DNA of 39,245 nucleotides from a virus (Duplodnaviria > Heunggongvirae > Uroviricota > Caudoviricetes). Numbering within the stretch: the first letter of the stretch is position 1; each line of letters opens with the position of its first letter. Where the stretch lies: IMG/VR virus record IMGVR_UViG_2558860161_000002; one strand, 5' to 3'. Of this stretch, positions 1 through 39,245 are shown in pieces. The position numbers and the translations under genes are program-made. The notes under the pieces are model-generated. The model was not told where the DNA came from. It saw only the letters and a program-made list of their open reading frames with translations, and did no database searches.

Positions 1-95
1 AGTCGCTGTCGTTCTCAAAATCGGTGGAGCTGCATGACAAAGTCATCGGGCATTATCTGAACATAAAACACTATCAATAAGTTGGAGTCATTACC
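1..95 (+). mobile_element. IS1 right-end fragment (terminal 95 bp including insB 3' end and the right inverted repeat); the element continues beyond the left window edge
   Basis: 1..95 is the same sequence as 30166..30260, the 3' end of the complete IS1 copy; ends ...caataagttggagtcattacc. Confidence 0.9.
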
Positions 96-308
96 CAGTT
101 TTGTCACAATCAATTGATCACCACATTTCAGGCGAGCAAGCAACCGGTTAAAACCAGGACGCTCACTGGTTGCTGCTGAGCCGCTAATGTGTTCTTCGAT
201 TATTTGCTGAGGTTTGATTTTAAAACCTGCACTTTCGATTTCCCGGCGTTGATTTTCGGTGGTCTGATCCAGCGTTGATATCCGACAGTAAGCAAAAATT
301 CGAGACAT
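96..308 (-). pseudogene. pinQ: Pin-family serine recombinase/DNA invertase, N-terminal fragment (about 71 codons) truncated by IS1
   Basis: ATG at 308; translation [29 protein letters not shown]...GDQLIVTKL with the catalytic Ser motif, then runs straight into IS1 sequence at 95. Confidence 0.85.
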
Positions 309-624
309 AGTGAGACTCTATACGAAATTGGTGTTCATATCATAATGCATCTCAGAAAATAATTTTGATTATTTTTGTGCATATTTTTATGTACACGTTC
401 GAAAATAAACGAATGCGTATGCAACCCCGTAATTTTGGTGAGACCCAAAATCGATTTTGTGAAAAATGGCTTTAACTCGGTTTGTTTTTCGAGTTCCGGG
501 CGGACTCAAGGAAGAAGAATAGTGTTGCGTGTTATTTTAACCAGATTTCAAGTTGTTTGGTCGTGGAAAAGTGGAGCAAAATGTTGTTAAAGTGGAAAAA
601 TGATAAAAAAGTAAGTTTATTATA

Positions 625-858
625 TTACATTTTACCATTTAAATTTTGGTTGTCTTTAAGAACTGATATCGCTGTTTGTAATAATTCTTTGTTATCCAGC
701 CATGATTTTTTCTTTATGTTTCCTTCAATGTAATCAAGCAATGTTCTGGTATTGATAGGTCTTCCCTGTTTTGCTACTTCCACTACAGCATCCCCTAGGA
801 TAATTCTTACTTCAGGAAGCTGCGCAGGGAACCACTTTAGGGTGTCTTTTGATTTCAT
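625..858 (-). CDS. ydfK: small prophage protein, YdfK/YnaE-like (77 aa from the internal Met MKSKDTLKWF...)
   Basis: ORF 625..891; lies between the invertase and ydfJ as remembered for Qin; start chosen by recollection of a 77-aa product. Confidence 0.5.
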   Translation of the reverse strand: MKSKDTLKWFPAQLPEVRIILGDAVVEVAKQGRPINTRTLLDYIEGNIKKKSWLDNKELLQTAISVLKDNQNLNGKM

Positions 859-1644
859 GAAGATATTCCTTAAAATATTATTGATTTTCATTGCGATATT
901 GTATGTCTGATTCAGGATATGTTGACTTATACATCGGTTTTGTCTGGGTTATTGGATATGCCAATCCCTAATTTTATTAGGGCATGACTAAAAATGCTGA
1001 ATATGATAAGGAGAGATGTGATTATCAGTATGCTGTTCATATAGCCTCGAATTAGTAATGTGTTATATATGATATAGTTGACAATTTTTATCTTGGGTGT
1101 TCTTAAAGTTCGTAGATAAACATTGTCGTTTCAGGTATACAGGAATGCTAACAGGTGGCAGCAAAAATCAGGCGGTTTATGGCGCAAGCTGAAGCGGCAA
1201 CTGCAAACTATCTTATGCAGAGACTCTACACGGATTGGGTTTAAAAGTATACATAGATAACAGTTTTTATCTGAAAAATAAAAATATCAAGGTGATATAG
1301 CCTATATGCCTTTGATGCGGAGGAATGAATGTGATGGGAGTGATGTATCTGAATAGTTGAAAAACCGCAGACACGCCTTATGCAAGAACGTGCTGCGGTT
1401 GGCTGGTAAATTTTTCGATAGTGTGAGTATTGAATGATTTCCAGCCGTTCTTGATTTTACGCATAAATCCATGAAAAAACTACTTATCTGTTGGGGAGTT
1501 TTTTTTGGGGCATATATGGGACAGAAATAGGCCCCAGATAGACACTGAGATCGAACTTAGGATGCTTTTTAAAAAATGCAACTATCTGAAAAAACCTAGA
1601 AAACGCCAAGGAAACCACAGGATGGGAAAAAACACCTGTGAATT

Positions 1645-2928
1645 ATGGATTTCCAGTTATATTCGCTCGGCGCAGCGTTAGTGTTTCATGAAATATTTTT
1701 TCCTGAATCATCAACGGCAATGGCGTTAATTCTGGCAATGGGAACCTACGGTGCAGGTCATGTGGCGCGTATTGTCGGAGCATTTATTTTCGGCAAAATG
1801 GGCGACAGAATAGGGCGTAAAAAAGTGCTCTTTATTACCATCACCATGATGGGGATCTGTACCACCTTAATTGGTGTGTTACCGACCTATGCACAGATTG
1901 GTGTTTTTGCCCCCATCTTGCTGGTGACGCTGCGTATTATTCAGGGATTGGGTGCAGGTGCGGAAATTTCCGGTGCCGGTACGATGCTGGCGGAATATGC
2001 GCCAAAAGGTAAGCGCGGAATTATCTCCTCATTTGTGGCTATGGGAACTAACTGCGGAACTTTAAGCGCAACGGCAATCTGGGCCTTTATGTTCTTCATT
2101 CTCAGTAAAGAGGAACTGCTGGCGTGGGGATGGCGTATACCGTTCCTGGCGAGCGTTGTCGTGATGGTCTTTGCTATCTGGTTGCGTATGAATCTGAAAG
2201 AAAGCCCGGTTTTTGAGAAGGTTAACGACAGCAACCAACCGACAGCAAAACCTGCACCTGCTGGTAGCATGTTCCAGAGCAAATCCTTCTGGCTGGCAAC
2301 AGGGCTGCGTTTTGGTCAGGCGGGTAACTCAGGTTTAATTCAGACTTTCCTTGCGGGCTATTTAGTGCAGACGTTATTGTTTAACAAAGCAATTCCAACA
2401 GATGCATTGATGATCAGTTCGATTCTCGGCTTTATGACCATTCCGTTCCTTGGTTGGTTATCCGATAAAATTGGTCGCCGGATCCCGTATATTATTATGA
2501 ATACCTCCGCGATTGTGCTGGCATGGCCAATGCTTTCTATCATCGTAGATAAAAGCTATGCCCCGAGCACCATTATGGTTGCACTGATTGTGATTCATAA
2601 CTGTGCGGTGCTGGGATTATTTGCTCTGGAAAATATTACCATGGCAGAAATGTTCGGCTGTAAAAACCGCTTTACCCGGATGGCTATTTCTAAAGAAATT
2701 GGTGGTCTTATCGCTTCCGGTTTTGGTCCTATCCTGGCGGGTATTTTCTGCACCATGACGGAATCCTGGTATCCGATCGCCATTATGATCATGGCATATT
2801 CAGTGATTGGTTTAATCTCTGCGCTGAAAATGCCAGAAGTGAAAGACCGTGATTTAAGTGCGCTGGAAGACGCCGCGGAAGATCAACCGCGTGTTGTAAG
2901 AGCTGCGCAACCTTCCAGAAGTCTGTAA
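1645..2928 (+). CDS. ydfJ: MFS transporter (metabolite:H+ symporter type), 427 aa, apparently lacking the N-terminal part of helix 1
   Basis: 427-aa ORF with many predicted membrane helices; in-frame TGA 6 nt upstream of the ATG; N-terminus begins inside the conserved first-helix motif. Confidence 0.8.
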   Translation: MDFQLYSLGAALVFHEIFFPESSTAMALILAMGTYGAGHVARIVGAFIFGKMGDRIGRKKVLFITITMMGICTTLIGVLPTYAQIGVFAPILLVTLRIIQGLGAGAEISGAGTMLAEYAPKGKRGIISSFVAMGTNCGTLSATAIWAFMFFILSKEELLAWGWRIPFLASVVVMVFAIWLRMNLKESPVFEKVNDSNQPTAKPAPAGSMFQSKSFWLATGLRFGQAGNSGLIQTFLAGYLVQTLLFNKAIPTDALMISSILGFMTIPFLGWLSDKIGRRIPYIIMNTSAIVLAWPMLSIIVDKSYAPSTIMVALIVIHNCAVLGLFALENITMAEMFGCKNRFTRMAISKEIGGLIASGFGPILAGIFCTMTESWYPIAIMIMAYSVIGLISALKMPEVKDRDLSALEDAAEDQPRVVRAAQPSRSL

Positions 2929-2955
2929 ATCCTCAATCCCGGTAATGACTCCAAC

Positions 2956-3459
2956 TTATTGATAGTGTTTTATGTTCAGATAATGCCCGATGACTTTGTC
3001 ATGCAGCTCCACCGATTTTGAGAACGACAGCGACTTCCGTCCCAGCCGTGCCAGGTGCTGCCTCAGATTCAGGTTATGCCGCTCAATTCGCTGCGTATAT
3101 CGCTTGCTGATTACGTGCAGCTTTCCCTTCAGGCGGGATTCATACAGCGGCCAGCCATCCGTCATCCATATCACCACGTCAAAGGGTGACAGCAGGCTCA
3201 TAAGACGCCCCAGCGTCGCCATAGTGCGTTCACCGAATACGTGCGCAACAACCGTCTTCCGGAGCCTGTCATACGCGTAAAACAGCCAGCGCTGGCGCGA
3301 TTTAGCCCCGACATAGCCCCACTGTTCGTCCATTTCCGCGCAGACGATGACGTCACTGCCCGGCTGTATGCGCGAGGTTACCGACTGCGGCCTGAGTTTT
3401 TTAAGTGACGTAAAATCGTGTTGAGGCCAACGCCCATAATGCGGGCTGTTGCCCGGCAT
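2956..3459 (-). CDS. insB: IS1 InsB reading frame (normally expressed as an InsAB' frameshift fusion)
   Basis: 167-aa ORF overlapping insA 3' end, identical to the insB ORF of the IS1 at 29493..30260. Confidence 0.9.
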
Positions 3460-3653
3460 CCAACGCCATTCATGGCCATATCAATGATTTTCTGGTGCGT
3501 ACCGGGTTGAGAAGCGGTGTAAGTGAACTGCAGTTGCCATGTTTTACGGCAGTGAGAGCAGAGATAGCGCTGATGTCCGGCGGTGCTTTTGCCGTTACGC
3601 ACCACCCCGTCAGTAGCTGAACAGGAGGGACAGCTGATAGAAACAGAAGCCAC
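3378..3653 (-). CDS. insA: IS1 InsA (91 aa)
   Basis: [46 protein letters not shown]... Confidence 0.9.
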
Positions 3654-3708
3654 TGGAGCACCTCAAAAACACCATCATACACTAAATCAGTAAGTTGGTA
3701 GCATCACC

Positions 3709-4094
3709 CAAAACTGGATCGCCTTGGTTGTAATGCAATGGATATCAGGAAAACAGTGGAACAACTGACCGAAACAGGTATCAGAGTGCATTGCTTAGCA
3801 TTGGGGGGCATTGACCTGACCAGTCCAACAGGAAAAATGATGATGCAAGTAATTTCAGCAGTCGCTGAATTTGAACGAGACCTTTTACTTGAACGCACTC
3901 ATTCCGGGATAGTAAGAGCCCGGGGCGCAGGGAAACGTTTTGGTCGACCACCTGTGTTAAATGAAGAACAGAAACAGGTGGTATTCGAACGAATTAAGTC
4001 AGGTGTAAGTATAAGTGCCATTGCCCGGGAATTCAAAACCTCGCGGCAAACCATTTTAAGAGCCAAAGCAAAACTTCAGACACCTGACATATAA
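3709..4094 (+). pseudogene. pinQ: Pin-family DNA invertase, C-terminal fragment (continues the 96..308 fragment, which is on the opposite strand)
   Basis: in-frame translation from the IS1 boundary: (K)[32 protein letters not shown]...KAKLQTPDI; first ATG at 3738. Confidence 0.85.
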
Positions 4095-4191
4095 AAAATA
4101 ATCTCGGTGTGAGATGCTTTACGTCTTCCAAGCCACCTTCCTTGCCGTAAATGGAAAGATACATCTAATTATAGAATTTATATGTTTTACC

Positions 4192-4767
4192 CTACGGCAG
4201 TGCTGGCCATTCAATATCCTGTGCAGTTGACGTATCAACACGGTTCAGCAATACCCGATACTTTTTCCATGCTTCCAGCAACGAGATTTCTTCCTCCGTT
4301 GCAATTTCCAGATCTGCAGCATCCTGAAGCGGCGCAATATGCTCACTGGCTACCTGCATCAGGCTGTTTTTTGTTTCTTCCGCCTCCCGGATCCGGAACA
4401 GTTTTTCTGCTTCCGTATCCTTCACCCAGGCTGTGCCGTTCCACTTCTGATATTCCCCTCCCGGCGATAACCAGGTAACATTTTCCGGTAACGGACCGAG
4501 TTCAGAAATAAATAACGCGTCGCCGGAAGCCACGTCATAAACCGTTTTACCCCGATGATCTTCAACGAGATGCCACGATGCCTCATCACTGTTGAAAACA
4601 GCCACGAAGCCTGCCGGAATATCTGGCGGTGCAATATCGATACTGTTTGCTGGCAGACCTGTATGAGGCGGAATATATGCGTCACCTTCACCAATAAATT
4701 CATTAGTTCCGGCCAGCAGATTATAAATTTTTATGGTCCGTGGTTGTTCACTCATTCTGAATGCCAT
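4192..4767 (-). CDS. tfa: tail fiber assembly protein (lambda Tfa family)
   Basis: 191-aa [37 protein letters not shown]..., near-identical to remembered lambda Tfa; start overlaps stf stop. Confidence 0.9.
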
Positions 4768-7700
4768 TATGCAAGCCTCACAATATAGTTAAATGCGATG
4801 TTTTTGACGGTGTTTTCCGCGTTACCAGCAGCGTTAACGGTGATGGTATGTCCATGTGAACCAATCGCAACGGAGTGCGTATGAGCACCAATACCGACAG
4901 TATGTGCGTGTGCACCTGCGCTTGCAGCAGTACCCGATACAGAGTGCGTATGAGCGCCTGCAGAAGAAGTGTTAACACTGTATTTAGAATAATCAGGTGA
5001 TCCACTTCCCGGAGCACCACTGGAACCACCTGAAACAAATGTCATCGAATGGGTATGTGCACCGGCTGAAGCAGCCGTACCGCTAACACTATGGGTATGC
5101 GCACCAGTGTTATTCGTGGATTTAGTGCCGTAATCAAACGACGATGTGGTTTTCGTCCCCAAATCCGTACTGGATACGCTGGCGCTGTGGGTGTGTGATT
5201 TAATGCCGTCCTGTTCCTGAGACAATACGGCTCGATCACTGGCGGGCTTGCCCTTAATCGTCCAGCCACGCATATCAGGGATCACGCCTGACGGATAAGC
5301 GGCTGCAAGTTTCGGGTAAGCAGATTTGTCAAAAGTCTGCCCCTGCATCAGGGCATAACCAGACGGAACGGTATCTGATGGCCACGGGATTGGTGCACCG
5401 ACTGGATAAAACTCTGCAGGAGGATGAGCCGAGGTGTAAAGCTGCGCCCACGGCGACCAGTTTGCGTCGGTCGTATCCCGTCGTGAACGAATAAATGCCG
5501 GAGCATGAGCACCGCTTGTACCACTCCAGCCGATGAGTAACTCACCTTCGCCAACGGCTGTCATCCCTTTCAGGTGAATGATATTTCCATACGCTGTTGG
5601 ATATCCGTTGTTATACACCTCGTATAACTCAAGACCTGTTGCCCCCTGCGTATTGTCTGTCAGCGCGGTTACCCGACCTTTTGAAGACAGATTAACTGAT
5701 GATACTGCTGTTCCACCTGACGGTAACGCCCCGATCTCTGATGCCGTTGGCTTATTTCTGGAGTTATAGTCCCTTCGCCAGCCAGGTGAATAATCTGTTC
5801 CGTGATTAATATAGGTAAACTGGGCGTTAGTTGTTCCACCACCAGTGGAGGTGGTCGGTGTGGTAATGCGGATCGTCATCGCTGACTTTATCCCCATTAC
5901 TTCAATGACAGCTCCGGCGAGATGAATATTACCGCAGCCAGTATCAGTAATGATTTTATTATTGCCATAAGACCAGGAACCCTTGCACATCCAGTATGGA
6001 TGGTTAAATGCTCCCTGAGAATCCAGCCACTCGATAAACTGTGCAGTCGTCCAGTTTCCTGTTGTTGTGCTTACTGACCCACCGAAGGCACGGCAGGCAC
6101 CAATATTTTTCGTAAAGGTGTCTTTGCCAGGGATATCCGCACCGTTCTGATCTTTCTGCAGACGTTTCTCAGCATTGTCATTGGCTGCTTTTACTGCCTT
6201 TGGCGTTGCCGCCAGCGTTTCAGACGTGCTGTTGGTCGCGCTGCTTAGCTGGATTATCCCTTTCTGTGCTGTCGTTGCATCCTGTGCGGTGTATTTCCCG
6301 TTAGCCAGGTCATACGCGGCCTTAACGGCTTTTGGCGTTGCCGCCAGTGACTCGGAAGTGCTGTTGGTCGCACTGCTGAGCTGTACTATCCCCTTTTTCG
6401 TCGTGCTCGCATCCTCAAGCGCCACGACGGATGCAATATCCTCTGCCCGTTTTGCCGCTGTCTCAGCGCGCGTTGCTGCAGATTCCGCCGTACTTTTGCT
6501 CTGAGCTGCTGCCGTCGCACTGCCAGCTGCCTCTGTCGCCTTCGTGGATGCCGTCGTGGCGCTACCCTTCGCTGCTGACGCCTGTCTGGTCGCCTCATCT
6601 TTTGAAGCAGACGCAGATGATGCCGATGACGACGCCGAACTGGCTGACGATGCGGCAGCCGTTTTTGAGGATTCTGCGCTGGTTTCCGACGCTTTCGCGT
6701 TCGTTTCGGATGTCTTCGCTGCGGAAGCAGACCTCGCTGCTGCGCTGGCCTGTTCAGTGGCTTCGCCAGCCTTCGTTGTGGCTGTTGAAGCAGACGATGC
6801 GGCGCTTTCTGCCGATTTTCCGGCGGCGGTGGCACTGGCTGAGGCCTGCCCGGCACTTGTTGACGCTGCACTGGCAGACGACGCAGCCGCTGTTTTTGAG
6901 CCTGCCGCAGCCGAGGCGCTCTGTCCCGCTGCCGTTTCAGAAGACCTGGCGTTCGTCTCTGACGTTTTTGCCGCCTTCGCGGAATTTCCTGCCGCTGTTG
7001 CCGAGGAAGCTGCGCTACTGGCGCTCGAGGATGCGTTCGTTTCTGATGATTTTGCCGCCTCTTTTGAAGCCGCCGCATCCCGGGCTGAGGTGGCAGCTTC
7101 TGACGCTTTCGTAGTCGCGGTGGATGCAGAAGTGGCTGCTGATTGTTGTGACGCTGCAGCATTCGTTTCTGACGTTTTCGCGGCACTGGCACTGGTAGCT
7201 GCCGCGCTTTTTGAGGACTCTGCAGCGGCAGCACTTTTTGATGCTTCAGTGGCCTTTGTTGATGCCGTTCCTGCGCTGGAAGTCGCTGACTGAGCCGACG
7301 ACGCGGCCTGTCCGGCTGACGTGCTGGCTGCGCGTGCTGAGCCTGCAGCATCAGTCGCATGGGTTGCCGCCTCACGGGCTGATGTGCTGGCATCACTGGC
7401 TGACTTCTTCGCGGCTGCCGTGTTCTGTGCCACCACGGACGCGTTACGCGCCACCTCTTCCACCATCAGCTCAAAACGGCGCAGTGCCTCCGGACGGGCA
7501 TCATCCTCCGTCATGGCACCGAGAAAATCATTCAGCGTACCGGGTCGGGAATCTTCATACACTGTGATGGTCCCGGCATGTGACGGCGGGAATCCTTCCA
7601 CCAACAGAATAACGCTGTACTGACCGTACTCAACGTCCATACTGTAACGCCCGGCTTCATCCGGATTTTCAGATGCCAGCGTGTTCACCACCACCGTGGT

Positions 7701-7796
7701 ACTGTTACGTTTTGCTTTCAGCTGGATTGTGCAGTTCTGTACCGGTTTTCCTGTGCCGTCTTTCAGTACACCTGAAATTTTTACTGCCATATTCAC
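4767..7796 (-). CDS. stf: side tail fiber protein (lambda Stf family), 1009 aa with a long Ala/Ser/Thr-rich tract and a C-terminal His-box region
   Basis: N-terminus M(NM)[25 protein letters not shown]; C-terminus with repeated GAHTHS/GAHAHT motifs ending [14 protein letters not shown]. Confidence 0.9.
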
Positions 7797-7800
7797 CCCA

Positions 7801-7828
7801 CAAAAAAGCCCGCCTGAACCGGCGGGCT
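7801..7828 (-). terminator. rho-independent terminator-like hairpin downstream of lom
   Basis: agcccgcc-tgaacc-ggcgggct stem-loop preceded by an A-run on the plus strand (T-run on the minus strand). Confidence 0.5.
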
Positions 7829-7854
7829 GTCATAACACTGTGTTACCTGGCTAA

Positions 7855-8454
7855 TCAGAATTTATAACCAACACCCACGATGAACCCGTCAGTGCGCCAG
7901 TCACCACTGCCGGAGCCTTCATAAGCGACATCAATGGCCACGGATTCGGTCGGGTTAAACTGCACGCCAGCTCCCCACGCCAGAGACGTGTTGCTGTGGC
8001 GACCGTCATCACTTCCGGTCAGCACATCGTGCTTTTTCCCCTTGTTGTCAGTTACGCGGAGATAATCCCCGGAGAAAGTCGACACACGGCTGTAAGCCAC
8101 ACCCGCCATCGCATACGCGCTGAACCATTCATTCACGCGCACAGACGGCCCCGCCATTACGCTGAACCAGCGGTTACGAACGGAATCTTCATGCCAGCGG
8201 GTATCGCTGGAACGGGTAATCTGGCGATTCTTGTCTCCTGCATAGCTGAACGACGTCACCATCCCCAGTGTGTCCGTAAACTCATAACGGTATTTCACGT
8301 TAATCCCGTTCAGATCATCACTGCCGGGAACGTTCGTCCGGGCATGAAGATACCCCGCGCTCAGCGTGGACTGATGTTCAGACGCCCATGCAGGCGCACC
8401 GGATACGGCCAGACAAATGGCTGCGGACAAAATGGCGGCATAAAGTTTACGCAT
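7855..8454 (-). CDS. lom: Lom outer-membrane protein (Ail/Lom/OmpX beta-barrel family)
   Basis: 199-aa ORF with signal peptide [24 protein letters not shown] and C-terminal ...GVGYKF. Confidence 0.9.
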
Positions 8455-8520
8455 AATTACCTCTCGCTTTTCTGCAATAAAAAAGGCGTCATTTCTGACG
8501 CCCGTTCTGGGTTATAAAAT

Positions 8521-11922
<3,402 letters not shown>

Positions 11923-13297: not shown

Positions 13298-13996
13298 TTA
13301 CTGCGAAAGTTTGTTAATGGAAAGGAAGCCGCCAAAGTTGCCGACGTTATTGCGGAACTTACAACCGCTCAGGCATTTGCTGCATTTATCCTTCGTGATA
13401 TCGGACGTTGGCTGGTCATATTCATCCGCGACAGCCGGACCGCTATAACCGCACTCGTCACCGCGATAGGTCCAGGTGCAGGTGTTGGCCAGCATGATAC
13501 GTCCCGGAAAAACAGCGCCATCCGTTTCCGTCGGCGTGGACAGTACAAAAGAGGCACTCACCGCGCTCAGTTCGCTGCACTGCTCAATGCGCCAGCGGCT
13601 GATCACCTCCTGCTCCGGATCGGCGCCACTGTTTCCGTTGACGAAGTTCACCGCATCCAGAAAACGGGCGTAAACCTTACGCCGGACCACCGTTCCACCG
13701 ACCAGACTCTGCAGATCTTCCGCCATCCCGGTGACCATACCGTACAGGTTAGAAACCGTCAGTGTGGGGCGCGTACTGGTGCCTTTGCCATTCAGTTCAA
13801 AACCACTCCCCTGAATGGGATACGGCTGATACTGTCGCCCCTGCCAGGTGACCGGCTCACCTTTTTCGTTCTGCTCATTACAGAAAAAATAACGTTCTCC
13901 ACCGACCTCTGTCAGGTCGATTTCCCAGAGCACCACGCTGGCCGACTGCTCCGCACGGGTGCATTCATTCAGTGTTTCCTGCCGGATATCCTGCAT
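13298..13996 (-). CDS. L: minor tail protein L
   Basis: 232-aa ORF MQDIRQETLNECTRAEQSASVVLWEIDLTEVGGERYFFCNEQ... Confidence 0.95.
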   Translation of the reverse strand: MQDIRQETLNECTRAEQSASVVLWEIDLTEVGGERYFFCNEQNEKGEPVTWQGRQYQPYPIQGSGFELNGKGTSTRPTLTVSNLYGMVTGMAEDLQSLVGGTVVRRKVYARFLDAVNFVNGNSGADPEQEVISRWRIEQCSELSAVSASFVLSTPTETDGAVFPGRIMLANTCTWTYRGDECGYSGPAVADEYDQPTSDITKDKCSKCLSGCKFRNNVGNFGGFLSINKLSQ

Positions 13997-17747: not shown

Positions 17748-18488
17748 TTAACTGTCGGTGACGGTGATTTCTGCAACCACAGCAAGTTCACCATTACCGG
17801 ATACAACCGGAATGTTGACCTTGCCTGCAGCAACACCTTTCACGGTGATGGTCATACCACTGACCGACACGGTGGCTTTTGTTTTATCCGCAGACACCGC
17901 ACGGAAGCTCTTGTCGGTTGCGCCTTCCGGCTGGAATGCCACGGTCAGCGTGGTGCTCTGCCCTTTCACCACCGAAGTGCTGGCAGGCGTCACGGTCATG
18001 CCGGTTGCCGCTGTTACCGTGCTGCGATCTTCTGCCATCGACGGACGTCTCACGTTGGTGACTTTCACCGTGCGGGTGATCACTTCCTTCGCCGTCACCG
18101 CCTTACCGATACTGCTGACCCAGCCGCGGAACACATCGACCGTGCCGTTCGGGAAGCGGATTTTATAGGCTCGGGTATCCCCTTCATTAAACCACGCCAG
18201 CAGCGCCTGCTGCCCCTGCTCTCCGGGCATCCACGCCAGCGTGAAGCTGGTATCTCCGGCAGATTTCTGCCCCTGCCCGGTCGCAGTCCAGTCCGCATCT
18301 TCATCATCGAGATAGCTGTCGTCATAGGACTCAGCGGTCAGTTCGCCGGGCGTCAGGTCTTTAACTTTAGCCAGACGCGACCAGTCAACGTCTGAAAGCG
18401 GGTTCGCATAAGGGTCACCGTTCCCCTTATAAACCCACAGTGTGGTCCCGGCCCCTTTCACCGGCATTACTGGATTTGGTACAGGCAT
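17748..18488 (-). CDS. V: major tail tube protein V (C-terminal Ig-like domain)
   Basis: 246 aa from [36 protein letters not shown]... Confidence 0.95.
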
Positions 18489-18495
18489 ATCGTCC

Positions 18496-18891
18496 TCACA
18501 TTTCATAGGTAATGACATAAGTCAGATCGGCTGAACTCCACAGGCCCGCATCATCGTCGCGCCGGTAGTCATAGCCACTGGCCACCATACTGGTGATCAA
18601 ATCTGACAGTGCCGGGACATCGCTCATCACCGGATAAATCCGGGACTCCATCCACGAATCCAGCTCTGAATCCGGCACCTGAGCAGGCAGGAAAACTTCA
18701 ATATGCAGCTCCGCCTGCCAGGTATCACTGTCCAGCTCTTCGCCCGTGTATTCAGCGCCGGTGAGATAAACGGCAATTGCCGGAAAATCCGCCTCATCAA
18801 AAACAGCGGGGCGACCATCAAAAAGCGTCGCCCCGGTGTCATGCTTCTCCAGTGCATCCAGTACGGCTGCACGGAGTTCAGTATGTTTCAT
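18496..18891 (-). CDS. U: tail terminator protein U
   Basis: 131-aa [36 protein letters not shown]... Confidence 0.95.
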
Positions 18892-23022: not shown

Positions 23023-26704
<3,682 letters not shown>

Positions 26705-27638: not shown

Positions 27639-27872
27639 ATGTCAACGAAGAACAGAACCCGCAGAACAACAACCCGCAACATCCGCTTTCCTAACCAAAT
27701 GATTGAACAAATTAACATCGCTCTTGAGCAAAAAGGGTCCGGGAATTTCTCAGCCTGGGTCATTGAAGCCTGCCGCCGGAGACTGTGCTCAGAAAAAAGA
27801 GTTTCTTCTGAAGCAAACAAAGAAAAGAGTGACATTACTGAATTGCTCAGAAAACAGGTCAGACCAGATTGA
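27639..27872 (+). CDS. small basic prophage protein (YnfO-like position), 77 aa
   Basis: ORF MSTKNRTRRTTTRNIRFPNQMIEQINIALEQKG...; sits between cos and ydfO. Confidence 0.45.
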   Translation: MSTKNRTRRTTTRNIRFPNQMIEQINIALEQKGSGNFSAWVIEACRRRLCSEKRVSSEANKEKSDITELLRKQVRPD

Positions 27873-29338: not shown

Positions 29339-29492
29339 TCAAAGCGCCACTACATGAACAGCGGCAGGACCTTTAGGTCCGTTCTCAATACCAAATTCAA
29401 CTTCCTGATTCTCAGTTAATGTTTTGAAATCGTTGCTCTGAATTGCTGAGAAATGGACAAACACATCTTTGCTGCCATCTTTCGGCGTGATG
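29339..29492 (-). pseudogene. cspI: cold-shock protein CspI, C-terminal fragment (gene interrupted by IS1)
   Basis: translation [50 protein letters not shown] directly abutting the IS1 left inverted repeat. Confidence 0.85.
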
Positions 29493-29547
29493 GGTGATGC
29501 TGCCAACTTACTGATTTAGTGTATGATGGTGTTTTTGAGGTGCTCCA

Positions 29548-29823
29548 GTGGCTTCTGTTTCTATCAGCTGTCCCTCCTGTTCAGCTACTGACGGGGTGGT
29601 GCGTAACGGCAAAAGCACCGCCGGACATCAGCGCTATCTCTGCTCTCACTGCCGTAAAACATGGCAACTGCAGTTCACTTACACCGCTTCTCAACCCGGT
29701 ACGCACCAGAAAATCATTGATATGGCCATGAATGGCGTTGGATGCCGGGCAACAGCCCGCATTATGGGCGTTGGCCTCAACACGATTTTACGTCACTTAA
29801 AAAACTCAGGCCGCAGTCGGTAA
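29548..29823 (+). CDS. insA: IS1 InsA
   Basis: 91-aa ORF identical to the insA of the IS1 at 2941..3708. Confidence 0.9.
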
Positions 29824-30245
29824 CCTCGCGCATACAGCCGGGCAGTGACGTCATCGTCTGCGCGGAAATGGACGAACAGTGGGGCTATGTCGGGGCTAAA
29901 TCGCGCCAGCGCTGGCTGTTTTACGCGTATGACAGGCTCCGGAAGACGGTTGTTGCGCACGTATTCGGTGAACGCACTATGGCGACGCTGGGGCGTCTTA
30001 TGAGCCTGCTGTCACCCTTTGACGTGGTGATATGGATGACGGATGGCTGGCCGCTGTATGAATCCCGCCTGAAGGGAAAGCTGCACGTAATCAGCAAGCG
30101 ATATACGCAGCGAATTGAGCGGCATAACCTGAATCTGAGGCAGCACCTGGCACGGCTGGGACGGAAGTCGCTGTCGTTCTCAAAATCGGTGGAGCTGCAT
30201 GACAAAGTCATCGGGCATTATCTGAACATAAAACACTATCAATAA
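29742..30245 (+). CDS. insB: IS1 InsB reading frame
   Basis: 167-aa ORF identical to the insB of the IS1 at 2941..3708. Confidence 0.9.
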
Positions 30246-30260
30246 GTTGGAGTCATTACC

Positions 30261-30328
30261 GGCGTGATGAAACCAAAACCTTTTTCAGGGTTAAACCATT
30301 TCACTAAACCAGTCATTTTGTTAGACAT
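30261..30328 (-). pseudogene. cspI: cold-shock protein CspI, N-terminal fragment
   Basis: ATG at 30328; translation [23 protein letters not shown] ending in the 9-bp target duplication. Confidence 0.85.

Positions 30329-38938: not shown

Positions 38939-39245
<307 letters not shown>

Follow-up and report, generated by a model that had tools for sequence, protein, structure and literature searches.

A split pinQ gene and an IS1-associated inversion at the end of a Qin-type lambdoid prophage of Escherichia coli

The ability of IS1 to promote inversions and adjacent deletions is a classical finding of the 1970s–90s. Chromosomal inversions in IS-rich E. coli and Shigella commonly arise by homologous recombination between inverted IS copies. 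IS-mediated inversion by "trans" intramolecular replicative transposition is on record for both IS26 and Tn4401 (He et al. 2015, mBio, PMC4471558), and the IS1 family is likewise thought to transpose replicatively (PMC4471558). A different type of inversion is catalyzed by the serine invertases. In K-12, PinQ flips the e14 P segment, which switches on an anti-T2 defence (Kirigo et al. 2025, NAR, PMC12529663). Redundancy of PinQ with PinR and PinE has been reported, and the PinQ-driven inversion of the P segment has a fitness cost in K-12 (PMC12529663).

The locus described here is at the start of a 39,245 nt stretch of DNA (termed the window; IMG/VR record IMGVR_UViG_2558860161_000002). As in the IS26 and Tn4401 "trans" cases, oppositely oriented IS copies bracket an inverted segment, an older target duplication is split between them, a relative carries the donor copy only, and sibling strains display the "cis" outcome, i.e. 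adjacent deletions. Unlike those cases, which concern plasmids, the element is IS1, with 8- and 9-bp duplications, in a chromosomal prophage, the one-step nature of the event is reached by inference, and one of the IS1 copies was later struck by an IS3-family element. Homologous recombination between inverted IS copies gives the same end product, and here 768 bp of perfect inverted homology are present; however that route needs an independent second insertion, whereas a rare variant in the left inverted repeat (IRL) suggests that the second copy descends from the first. As in the PinQ/PinE/PinR and Hin-Gin-Cin systems with their invertible tail-fibre segments, the invertase gene, here the disrupted pinQ, is located beside stf/tfa tail-fibre genes. 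Unlike those systems the inversion is not invertase-catalyzed, crossover sites are lacking and the invertase is a casualty. The known PinQ substrate, the e14 P segment, lies outside the window.

The segment is bracketed by two IS1 copies, which is similar to a Tn9-type composite transposon, but the outer flanks are unrelated (GAAGGGATTGAG versus CAAAACTGGATC), the content is native neighbouring DNA and one IS1 is disrupted. There is no direct target duplication around the whole IS1-segment-IS1 unit, as the outer flanks differ. Thus the segment and its two IS1 copies did not enter the site together, and a composite transposon is rejected.

Intact pinQ is absent. The gene is split after codon 71 by IS1 and its halves lie 3.4 kb apart on opposite strands. 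The 5′ fragment (96..308, minus strand) consists of exactly codons 1–71 and encodes the catalytic N-terminus of the Resolvase domain (PF00239). It adjoins the right inverted repeat (IRR) of an IS1 at the window edge and reads through into this element to form a chimeric open reading frame of 97 aa (15–308). The 3′ fragment (3709..4094, plus strand) encodes the rest of the Resolvase domain and HTH_7, extends to the stop codon, and adjoins the IRL of a complete IS1 at 2941..3708. An earlier annotation made without database searches (the sequence-only reading) had placed both fragments in this way, and all of its coordinates hold.

The same annotation had taken the fragments to be halves of one recombinase gene. 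When one caaaactg copy is removed, the reverse complement of 96–308 joined to 3717–4094 gives a 591 nt open reading frame of 196 aa, within the range of about 190–200 aa typical of the Pin/Hin/Gin/Cin group. The rejoined protein displays PF00239 (E-value = 2.5e-36) and PF02796 HTH_7 (E-value = 3.8e-11), the domains of a PinQ-type serine invertase, and is identical to the annotated intact pinQ product of strain 1008S19; the claim is therefore correct. The source strain has no functional PinQ. At this locus annotation pipelines will list two "partial recombinase" pseudogenes together with the 97 aa chimeric open reading frame.

The two halves carry an 8-bp sequence at their IS1 ends: cagttttg at 96..103, which is the reverse complement of 3709–3716, and caaaactg at 3709..3716. 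The sequence caaaactg occurs only twice on the plus strand of the whole 39-kb window, and its complement only once. In native pinQ the 8-mer is present as a single copy at the insertion site (...GTGACAAAACTGGATCGCC...), thus both window copies represent a genuine 8-bp target duplication of the pinQ insertion, in inverted orientation as the sequence-only reading had proposed.

The complete IS1 (2941..3708, minus strand) is 768 bp long, with the IRR at 2941 and the IRL at 3708. Both ends were read and are canonical (GGTGATGCT.CCAAC... and ...GTTGGAGTCATTACC), and the termini agree, except for one base, with the imperfect inverted repeats of about 23 bp that are typical of IS1 (GGTGATGCTGCCAACTTACTGAT and GGTAATGACTCCAACTTATTGAT). 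The overlapping open reading frames are also those of IS1: insA (3378–3653, minus strand) encodes a zinc ribbon plus HTH protein (InsA, PF03811 and PF12759, E-values of 1e-21 and 5e-31) and is followed in the −1 frame by insB′ (2956–3459, minus strand), which encodes the IS1 DDE transposase (PF03400, E-value = 2e-78). Relative to canonical IS1A the element has a single base change, G10A in the IRL (one mismatch to annotated IS1A copies). Target duplications are of the 8–9 bp expected of IS1, i.e. 8 bp at pinQ, 9 bp in the ydfJ-ydfI spacer and 9 bp at cspI. The cspI copy, the third IS1 of the window, is a simple insertion with a 9-bp direct duplication.

The edge IS1 is represented by its IRR-terminal 95 nt (1..95, plus strand; IS1 positions 674–768), which match the corresponding end of the complete copy with 100% identity. 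The arms 1–95 and 2941–3035 are 100% complementary and are 2845 nt apart. The sequence at the edge is thus IS1, as had been claimed, but its description as a partial IS1 is correct only in part, as there is no arbitrary cut. The window is part of scaffold KE137120.1 (GCA_000408465.1), and position 1, which corresponds to position 10308 of the source scaffold (L006), adjoins a 1,885-N gap. The element is shortened by this gap within it and not by biology. On the far side of the gap come, in this order, an IS3-family element that sits within the edge IS1, the IRL end of that IS1, CTCAATCCC and ydfI. The IRL-terminal 198 nt are 100% identical to the full copy. Both termini of the edge IS1 are co-oriented and are at the expected flanks, with the middle 475 nt lying in the gap; the gap is about 1.4 kb larger than these 475 nt of IS1 expected to be missing.

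The nested IS3-family element is 1,336 bp in length and is located at IS1 position 198/199. The same element is found in plasmid CP091757.1 inside a different IS1 variant, at position 268, and in plasmid CP107723.1 in a non-IS1 context. Import of the edge copy as a pre-formed IS1::IS3-family nested element is rejected, as the plasmid contexts differ.

Between the two IS1 copies is a block of 2,845 bp (96..2940) that is collinear with positions 40619–43464 of the reference (L003) and opposite in orientation to both sides. In comparison of the source scaffold with reference 1008S19 this block alone is inverted; its neighbours, the pinQ 3′ end with the tail genes at one border and ydfI at the opposite border, retain the reference order and orientation. 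An IS1-associated inversion of about 2.8 kb, by recombination or transposition, had been proposed from the letters of the window, and it is exactly this block that is inverted. The proposal that it carries ydfK and ydfJ is correct but incomplete. In addition to the pinQ 5′ fragment the block contains ydfK (625..858, minus strand; cold-shock protein YdfK, annotation transferred from 100%-identical relatives), ynfT (927..1040, minus strand; YnaM/YnfT small protein), the prophage/chromosome junction, and at 1645..2928 (plus strand) ydfJ′, a pseudogene of an MHS-family MFS transporter whose N-terminus is missing through truncation by the prophage.

The far end of the block shows a second duplication. 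The native ydfJ-ydfI spacer reads TAAATC|CTCAATCCC|TTCTCTTACC, and does so once. In the rearranged locus the 9-mer CTCAATCCC is present at 2932..2940, beside the IRR of the inner IS1, and its mate is at positions 13728–13736 of L006, beside the IRL of the edge IS1 and inverted relative to the window. The sequence was read across each of the four junctions. The 8-mer is common to the IRR/pinQ-5′ and IRL/pinQ-3′ junctions, the 9-mer to the IRR/ydfJ-end and IRL/ydfI-upstream junctions, and each is an inverted pair. The segment between the oppositely oriented IS1 copies runs against the ancestral order, as in a "trans" product, the orientation being taken from a short-read scaffold. The inverted 9-bp pair beside the inner IRR and outer IRL also agrees with the "trans" footprint (PMC4471558), a feature that is not exclusive to this mechanism.

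The IS1 insertion in pinQ preceded the inversion. A relative, L004 (GCA_045581455.1), has the un-rearranged order pinQ-5′-IS1-pinQ-3′, in which the 8-bp duplication is direct and the ydfJ-ydfI spacer is intact, i.e. the donor copy with an empty target site. The spacer is likewise intact in four other pinQ::IS1 relatives (L002, L005, L007 and L008); in L009 the 25-mer used to test for it was not found.

The reading preferred here, with a probability of roughly 0.55, is insertion of IS1 into pinQ followed by one-step "trans" intramolecular replicative transposition into the ydfJ-ydfI spacer. IS1 would first have entered pinQ of a full-length Qin-type lambdoid prophage in E. coli, duplicating the 8-bp caaaactg and inactivating the invertase. 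The resident copy would then have attacked the spacer 2.8 kb away on the same chromosome, replicatively and in the "trans" orientation. By this single step a second, oppositely oriented IS1 would have arisen and the 2,845 bp between the two copies (pinQ-5′, ydfK, ynfT and ydfJ′) would have been turned round. The 9-bp target CTCAATCCC would have been duplicated such that one copy is inside the block and one outside it, mutually inverted, and one of the two older 8-bp repeats would have been inverted along with the block. Copying and inversion would thus be one event rather than two. Insertion of the IS3-family element into the outer IS1 copy would have come later. The observed footprint is that of a product of intramolecular "trans" replicative transposition (He et al. 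2015, PMC4471558).

A possible but clearly less probable explanation is that a second IS1, perhaps copied from the pinQ copy, inserted independently in the spacer in opposite orientation with its own direct 9-bp duplication, and that RecA-dependent recombination then flipped the 2.8-kb block; flipping in the population may continue. This predicts the exact junctions observed and both inverted duplicate pairs. The perfect inverted homology is ample for RecA, and the cspI copy shows that simple IS1 insertion with a 9-bp direct duplication has taken place in the same window. On the other hand two events are invoked where one is enough, and none of the contigs read shows an un-inverted two-copy intermediate, a state that contigs from short reads would be unable to reveal. 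The end structure is formally the same by either route, and no junction sequence proves the one-step route; the swapped and inverted target duplications do not discriminate between them. The sequence-only reading had suggested that a repeat at the outer flank of the edge IS1, matching 2932–2940 in inverted form, would favor two independent insertions, and that its absence would favor intramolecular transposition. The inverted 9-bp mate is indeed there, however the flank separates no mechanisms because both routes predict the same footprint, as follows from strand-transfer geometry (He et al. 2015, PMC4471558). The sequences of the IS1 copies were therefore compared instead.

Both IS1 copies flanking the inversion have A at IRL position 10. 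All other IS1 copies examined have G, including the un-rearranged pinQ::IS1 and the third IS1 of the window, and of 9,314 IS1-bearing records only 25 have an end that matches the A variant exactly. The edge and complete IS1 can be compared over 293 of 768 nt, the rest being in the gap, and all of these are identical. The rare variant in both flanking copies identifies them as sister copies. As far as sequence comparison goes, the common variant shows common descent of the two copies and not simultaneity, and it would lean mildly toward one-step replicative transposition over a second insertion plus recombination, which requires the pinQ copy, or some other donor with the rare A variant, as the source of the second IS1. 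A donor of the latter kind may be present elsewhere in the source genome, because 25 other records carry the variant.

It is improbable that the inversion is an assembly artefact in which the IS1 copies in pinQ and the spacer are real, the block is in the reference orientation, and the identical IS1 bodies were mis-threaded. The four IS-end/flank junctions are the same in inverted and un-inverted configurations, thus only linkage across the 768-bp IS1 body decides orientation. The assembly path that gives the block its orientation was built from short reads and passes through this repeat, and short-read assemblies by themselves cannot establish which way round a segment lies between identical inverted IS copies. 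The unclosed scaffold gap is exactly in one IS1 copy and differs in size from expectation. In addition, 5,426 complete E. coli genomes were searched with three 190-bp junction probes (J1, J2 and J3), and J2 and J3 were in none of them among the best 40 pieces per genome; in IS1-rich genomes some matches might lie below these, but a full-length match should rank above partial ones. Against an artefact, a gap-free contig path from pinQ-3′ through IS1 to the ydfJ end agrees with the inversion, as does a separate scaffold link from pinQ-5′ through the gap, the IS3-family element and the IS1 IRL to ydfI. The nested element also makes the IS1 copies physically different, which aids mate-pair resolution.

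It is at least as doubtful that the block is a RecA-driven flip-flop in a mixed population; equally doubtful is the further possibility that loss of pinQ by IS1 was selected in this lineage. Very unlikely is the reverse order, in which the ydfJ-ydfI spacer was the first site of an A-variant IS1 and pinQ the target of its later intramolecular transposition, the identical pinQ::IS1 junction of other strains being an independent insertion at a hot spot. This explains the common IRL variant without a G-to-A change in a pre-existing pinQ copy, but it needs the same base position, orientation and unusual 8-bp duplication to have been repeated as in at least seven other assemblies, and the complete-genome survey found no strain with IS1 at the spacer position alone. 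Site-specific inversion of a programmed segment by a Pin invertase itself is rejected: the split gene does encode a DNA invertase, and PinQ is active in K-12 (PMC12529663), but pinQ is disrupted, the breakpoints match the IS1 termini to the base and carry target duplications, no sequence within three mismatches of the Pin crossover repeat TTGGTTTGGGAGAAGG is present in the 39-kb window, and the generic AAACCNNGGTTT core has only chance-level matches there, far from the breakpoints.

The IS1-associated rearrangement is real and is of an already known, textbook kind. It is a clean, fully reconstructable case of IS1 reshaping a prophage end and matters little otherwise. The IS1 copy in pinQ is demonstrably prone to rearrangement. 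The IRR/pinQ-5′ junction is retained in three distinct adjacent deletions, whose far ends are at window positions 4710, 25744 and 27820. The single pinQ insertion can be followed in public assemblies through five states, i.e. un-rearranged, three adjacent deletions and one inversion. Among the matches listed for the 5,426 complete genomes, J1 (IS1/pinQ-5′) is in one piece in three, all of which are deletions and none an inversion. The allele is widespread, and 55 blocks of the assembly collection list the chimeric pinQ/IS1 open reading frame. After the insertion of IS1 in pinQ, tail and head genes of the prophage have repeatedly been lost as well.

The first 4500 nucleotides of the window were laid out by reading and by an open reading frame listing, with gene names carried over from annotated relatives at 100% identity. 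An IS1 end (positions 1–95, plus strand) is followed by the N-terminal part of a recombinase gene, pinQ-5′ (96–308, minus), by ydfK (625–858, minus) and ynfT (927–1040, minus), and by ydfJ′, an MFS transporter gene truncated at its 5′ end (1645–2928, plus). Next come a 768 bp IS1 with canonical termini (2941–3708, minus), the C-terminal part of the recombinase gene, pinQ-3′ (3709–4094, plus), and, from position 4192 on the minus strand, tfaQ and then a tail-fibre gene of 1009 aa. The sequence-only reading took the edge sequence to be IS1, and a script comparison confirms that positions 1–95 match the IRR end of the complete IS1 without a difference, in inverted orientation. A repeat search agrees, giving two 95 nt arms that are 100% complementary at a spacing of 2,845 nt.

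The two recombinase fragments are halves of one gene, as that reading had also held. The reverse complement of 96–308 joined to 3717–4094 gives an unbroken 591 nt open reading frame; the 196 aa product displays Resolvase and HTH_7 domains and is identical to the intact annotated PinQ of strain 1008S19. The 8-mer caaaactg is indeed present at both fragment ends in mutually inverted copies, and the native gene has a single copy. Read-through from pinQ-5′ into IS1 forms a 97 aa chimeric open reading frame (15–308, minus), which is called by gene finders.

The whole window was mapped by BLAST to 1008S19, a reference with an uninterrupted Qin-type prophage. Positions 96–2940 (block B) are collinear with it in one orientation, and positions 3709–29492 (block A) in the opposite orientation. 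Block A starts with pinQ-3′ and takes in tfaQ, stf, lom, J, the genes for tail and head, terminase, ynfO and ydfO before it reaches into cspI. The junction-specific 97 aa sequence, used as a query in public assemblies, identified the source scaffold, KE137120.1 (L006, GCA_000408465.1), which equals window 1–10308 at 100% and extends past the left edge. There 1,885 Ns directly adjoin window position 1. Beyond them are a complete IS3-family element, then the IRL-terminal 198 nt of an IS1 in the same orientation as the 95 nt IRR end, and then CTCAATCCC followed by TTCTCTTACC and by ydfI, ydfZ, rspR, ydfG and dcp (block C) in the order of the reference. The native ydfJ-ydfI spacer is TAAATC-CTCAATCCC-TTCTCTTACC; thus the inverted counterpart of the 9-mer at 2932–2940 lies on the outer side of the edge IS1. 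Blocks A and C are in reference orientation and block B alone is flipped. The proposed IS1-associated inversion of an approximately 2.8 kb ydfK-ydfJ segment is therefore supported, and relative to 1008S19 it is limited to block B.

Strand-transfer geometry was worked out for two routes, insertion plus recombination and one-step replicative transposition. Each leads to an identical structure, ydfI - t′ - IRL[IS1]IRR - s′ - block B - t - IRR[IS1]IRL - s - pinQ-3′, where t and t′ are the 9-bp target duplication copies of the spacer and s and s′ the 8-bp copies of pinQ. The outer flank had been put forward as a way to separate two insertions from intramolecular transposition, but it lacks that power because both predict the same flank. 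He et al. (2015; PMC4471558) describe this footprint of inverted copies and target duplications, argue for a case with a one-copy relative that the one-step route is likelier, and remark that replicative transposition seems to be used by the IS1 family as well.

The sequence of the IS1 copies is somewhat informative. Both copies flanking the inversion have an A at IRL position 10 (window 3699 and L006 13718); a G is found there in the un-rearranged pinQ::IS1, in all deletion derivatives, in the 1008S19 copy and in the window's third IS1. The exact A-variant end occurs in 25 of 9,314 IS1-bearing E. coli records. The two copies are identical over all 293 comparable nt, and this identity together with the shared rare A indicates that they are sister copies. 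Sister copies are automatic in a one-step model, in which the pinQ copy would have transposed replicatively within the molecule into the ydfJ-ydfI spacer, flipping block B. One-step transposition is thus the favored origin of the inversion, with a probability of roughly 0.55. Insertion of another IS1 into the spacer in inverted orientation, with homologous recombination afterwards, predicts exactly the same final product and is a possible, less probable origin; it requires an added assumption to account for sister copies. Among the A-variant matches listed, most lie beside an "inovirus Gp2 family protein" gene.

An assembly artefact, with block B really un-inverted between two IS1 copies, would share all four junctions, and the sequence comes from a short-read scaffold that contains a gap. 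The gap (L006 10309–12193) holds 1,885 N, whereas 475 nt of IS1 are missing; the excess of about 1.4 kb, about one IS, could be an estimation error or another unassembled insertion. An artefact is nevertheless improbable, since the inversion is given independently by the contig path and by the scaffold link. Inversion by an invertase is excluded, as the breakpoints coincide with the ends of IS1 and carry target duplications; insertion of a composite transposon is excluded by unrelated outer flanks. The crossover repeat acted on by PinQ, TTGGTTTGGGAGAAGG (PMC12529663), has no match at ≤3 mismatches in the window, and a generic crossover core gives only chance-level matches elsewhere in it. No second, inverted tail-fibre cassette is present between tfaQ and pinQ, thus PinQ has no local substrate.

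The IS3-family element (L006 12194–13529, 1,336 bp; orfA with HTH_Tnp_1, orfB with rve) is nested at position 198/199 of the edge IS1, inside insA. Its ends are IS2-like, TGATGTAGCCCCCTGAAAC... and ...GGAGGGTCAAGATCA. Copies elsewhere, mainly on plasmids, show 99%–100% identity and are annotated merely as "IS3 family transposase". These occupy other contexts; the insertion into the outer IS1 is a later, local event.

Relatives were found by lookup of the 97 aa sequence and by junction searches in complete genomes; the probes demanded the IRR/pinQ-5′ junction, so that only derivatives retaining it were detectable. The identical junction recurs in several other states. L004 (GCA_045581455.1) is un-rearranged, pinQ-5′-IS1-pinQ-3′, with a direct 8-bp duplication and an intact spacer. 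Deletions end at window 4710 in tfaQ (KMi029, L012), at 25744 in the large terminase gene (L007 and 22AR0118, L013) and at 27820 in ynfO (2022CK-00450, L002, and L005). These states indicate that the pinQ insertion preceded the other changes and that the same IS1 copy rearranged its surroundings repeatedly. The ydfJ end/IS1 and IS1/pinQ-3′ junctions are absent from 5,426 complete genomes. In the collection of public assemblies, 55 blocks list the exact 97 aa protein, thus pinQ::IS1 is a widespread allele within one E. coli lineage; carriers are isolates from the USA, Japan and New Zealand and one human gut metagenome. In L004 another IS1 (17771–18535) fuses a truncated J gene directly to rspB, so that the prophage has lost its entire left part; an IS1 also lies at rspB in 1008S19. 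Erosion of both Qin ends by IS1 appears to be recurrent.

IS-bracketed inversions whose target duplications are swapped and inverted are textbook knowledge, as are IS1 and PinQ themselves. A survey of E. coli genomes found natural inversions in e14 only, not in Qin (Kirigo et al. 2025; PMC12529663), thus this particular IS1-made Qin inversion is probably unreported, yet the process behind it is known and the case an ordinary one. In terms of function it adds little beyond the inactivation of pinQ by the original insertion; block B carries only ydfK, ynfT and one pseudogene.

The third IS1 of the window (29493–30260, plus) is identical to canonical IS1A and sits in cspI as a plain insertion, flanked by direct copies of the 9-bp duplication ggcgtgatg at 29484–29492 and 30261–30269. 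It is lacking in all relatives examined. At the right end, positions 38941–39245 enter the terminus of an IS5-like ISKpn26 (99%–100% to annotated copies), which stands in place of the sequence beside ydfW in relatives. With IS1 at the left, the window is thus IS-bounded at both ends.

The Qin prophage of K-12 is a much shorter remnant. In contrast, positions 4192–28000 are a full-length lambdoid prophage in which the terminase, portal, capsid, tail, J, lom, stf and tfa modules are all complete. Over 24 kb it shows 100% identity to prophages of strains 1008S19, MLI104K1 and N9. Its tail-fibre gene (4767–7796, minus) has a long central Ala/Ser/Thr-rich low-complexity region, which gives several long spurious overlapping open reading frames on both strands.
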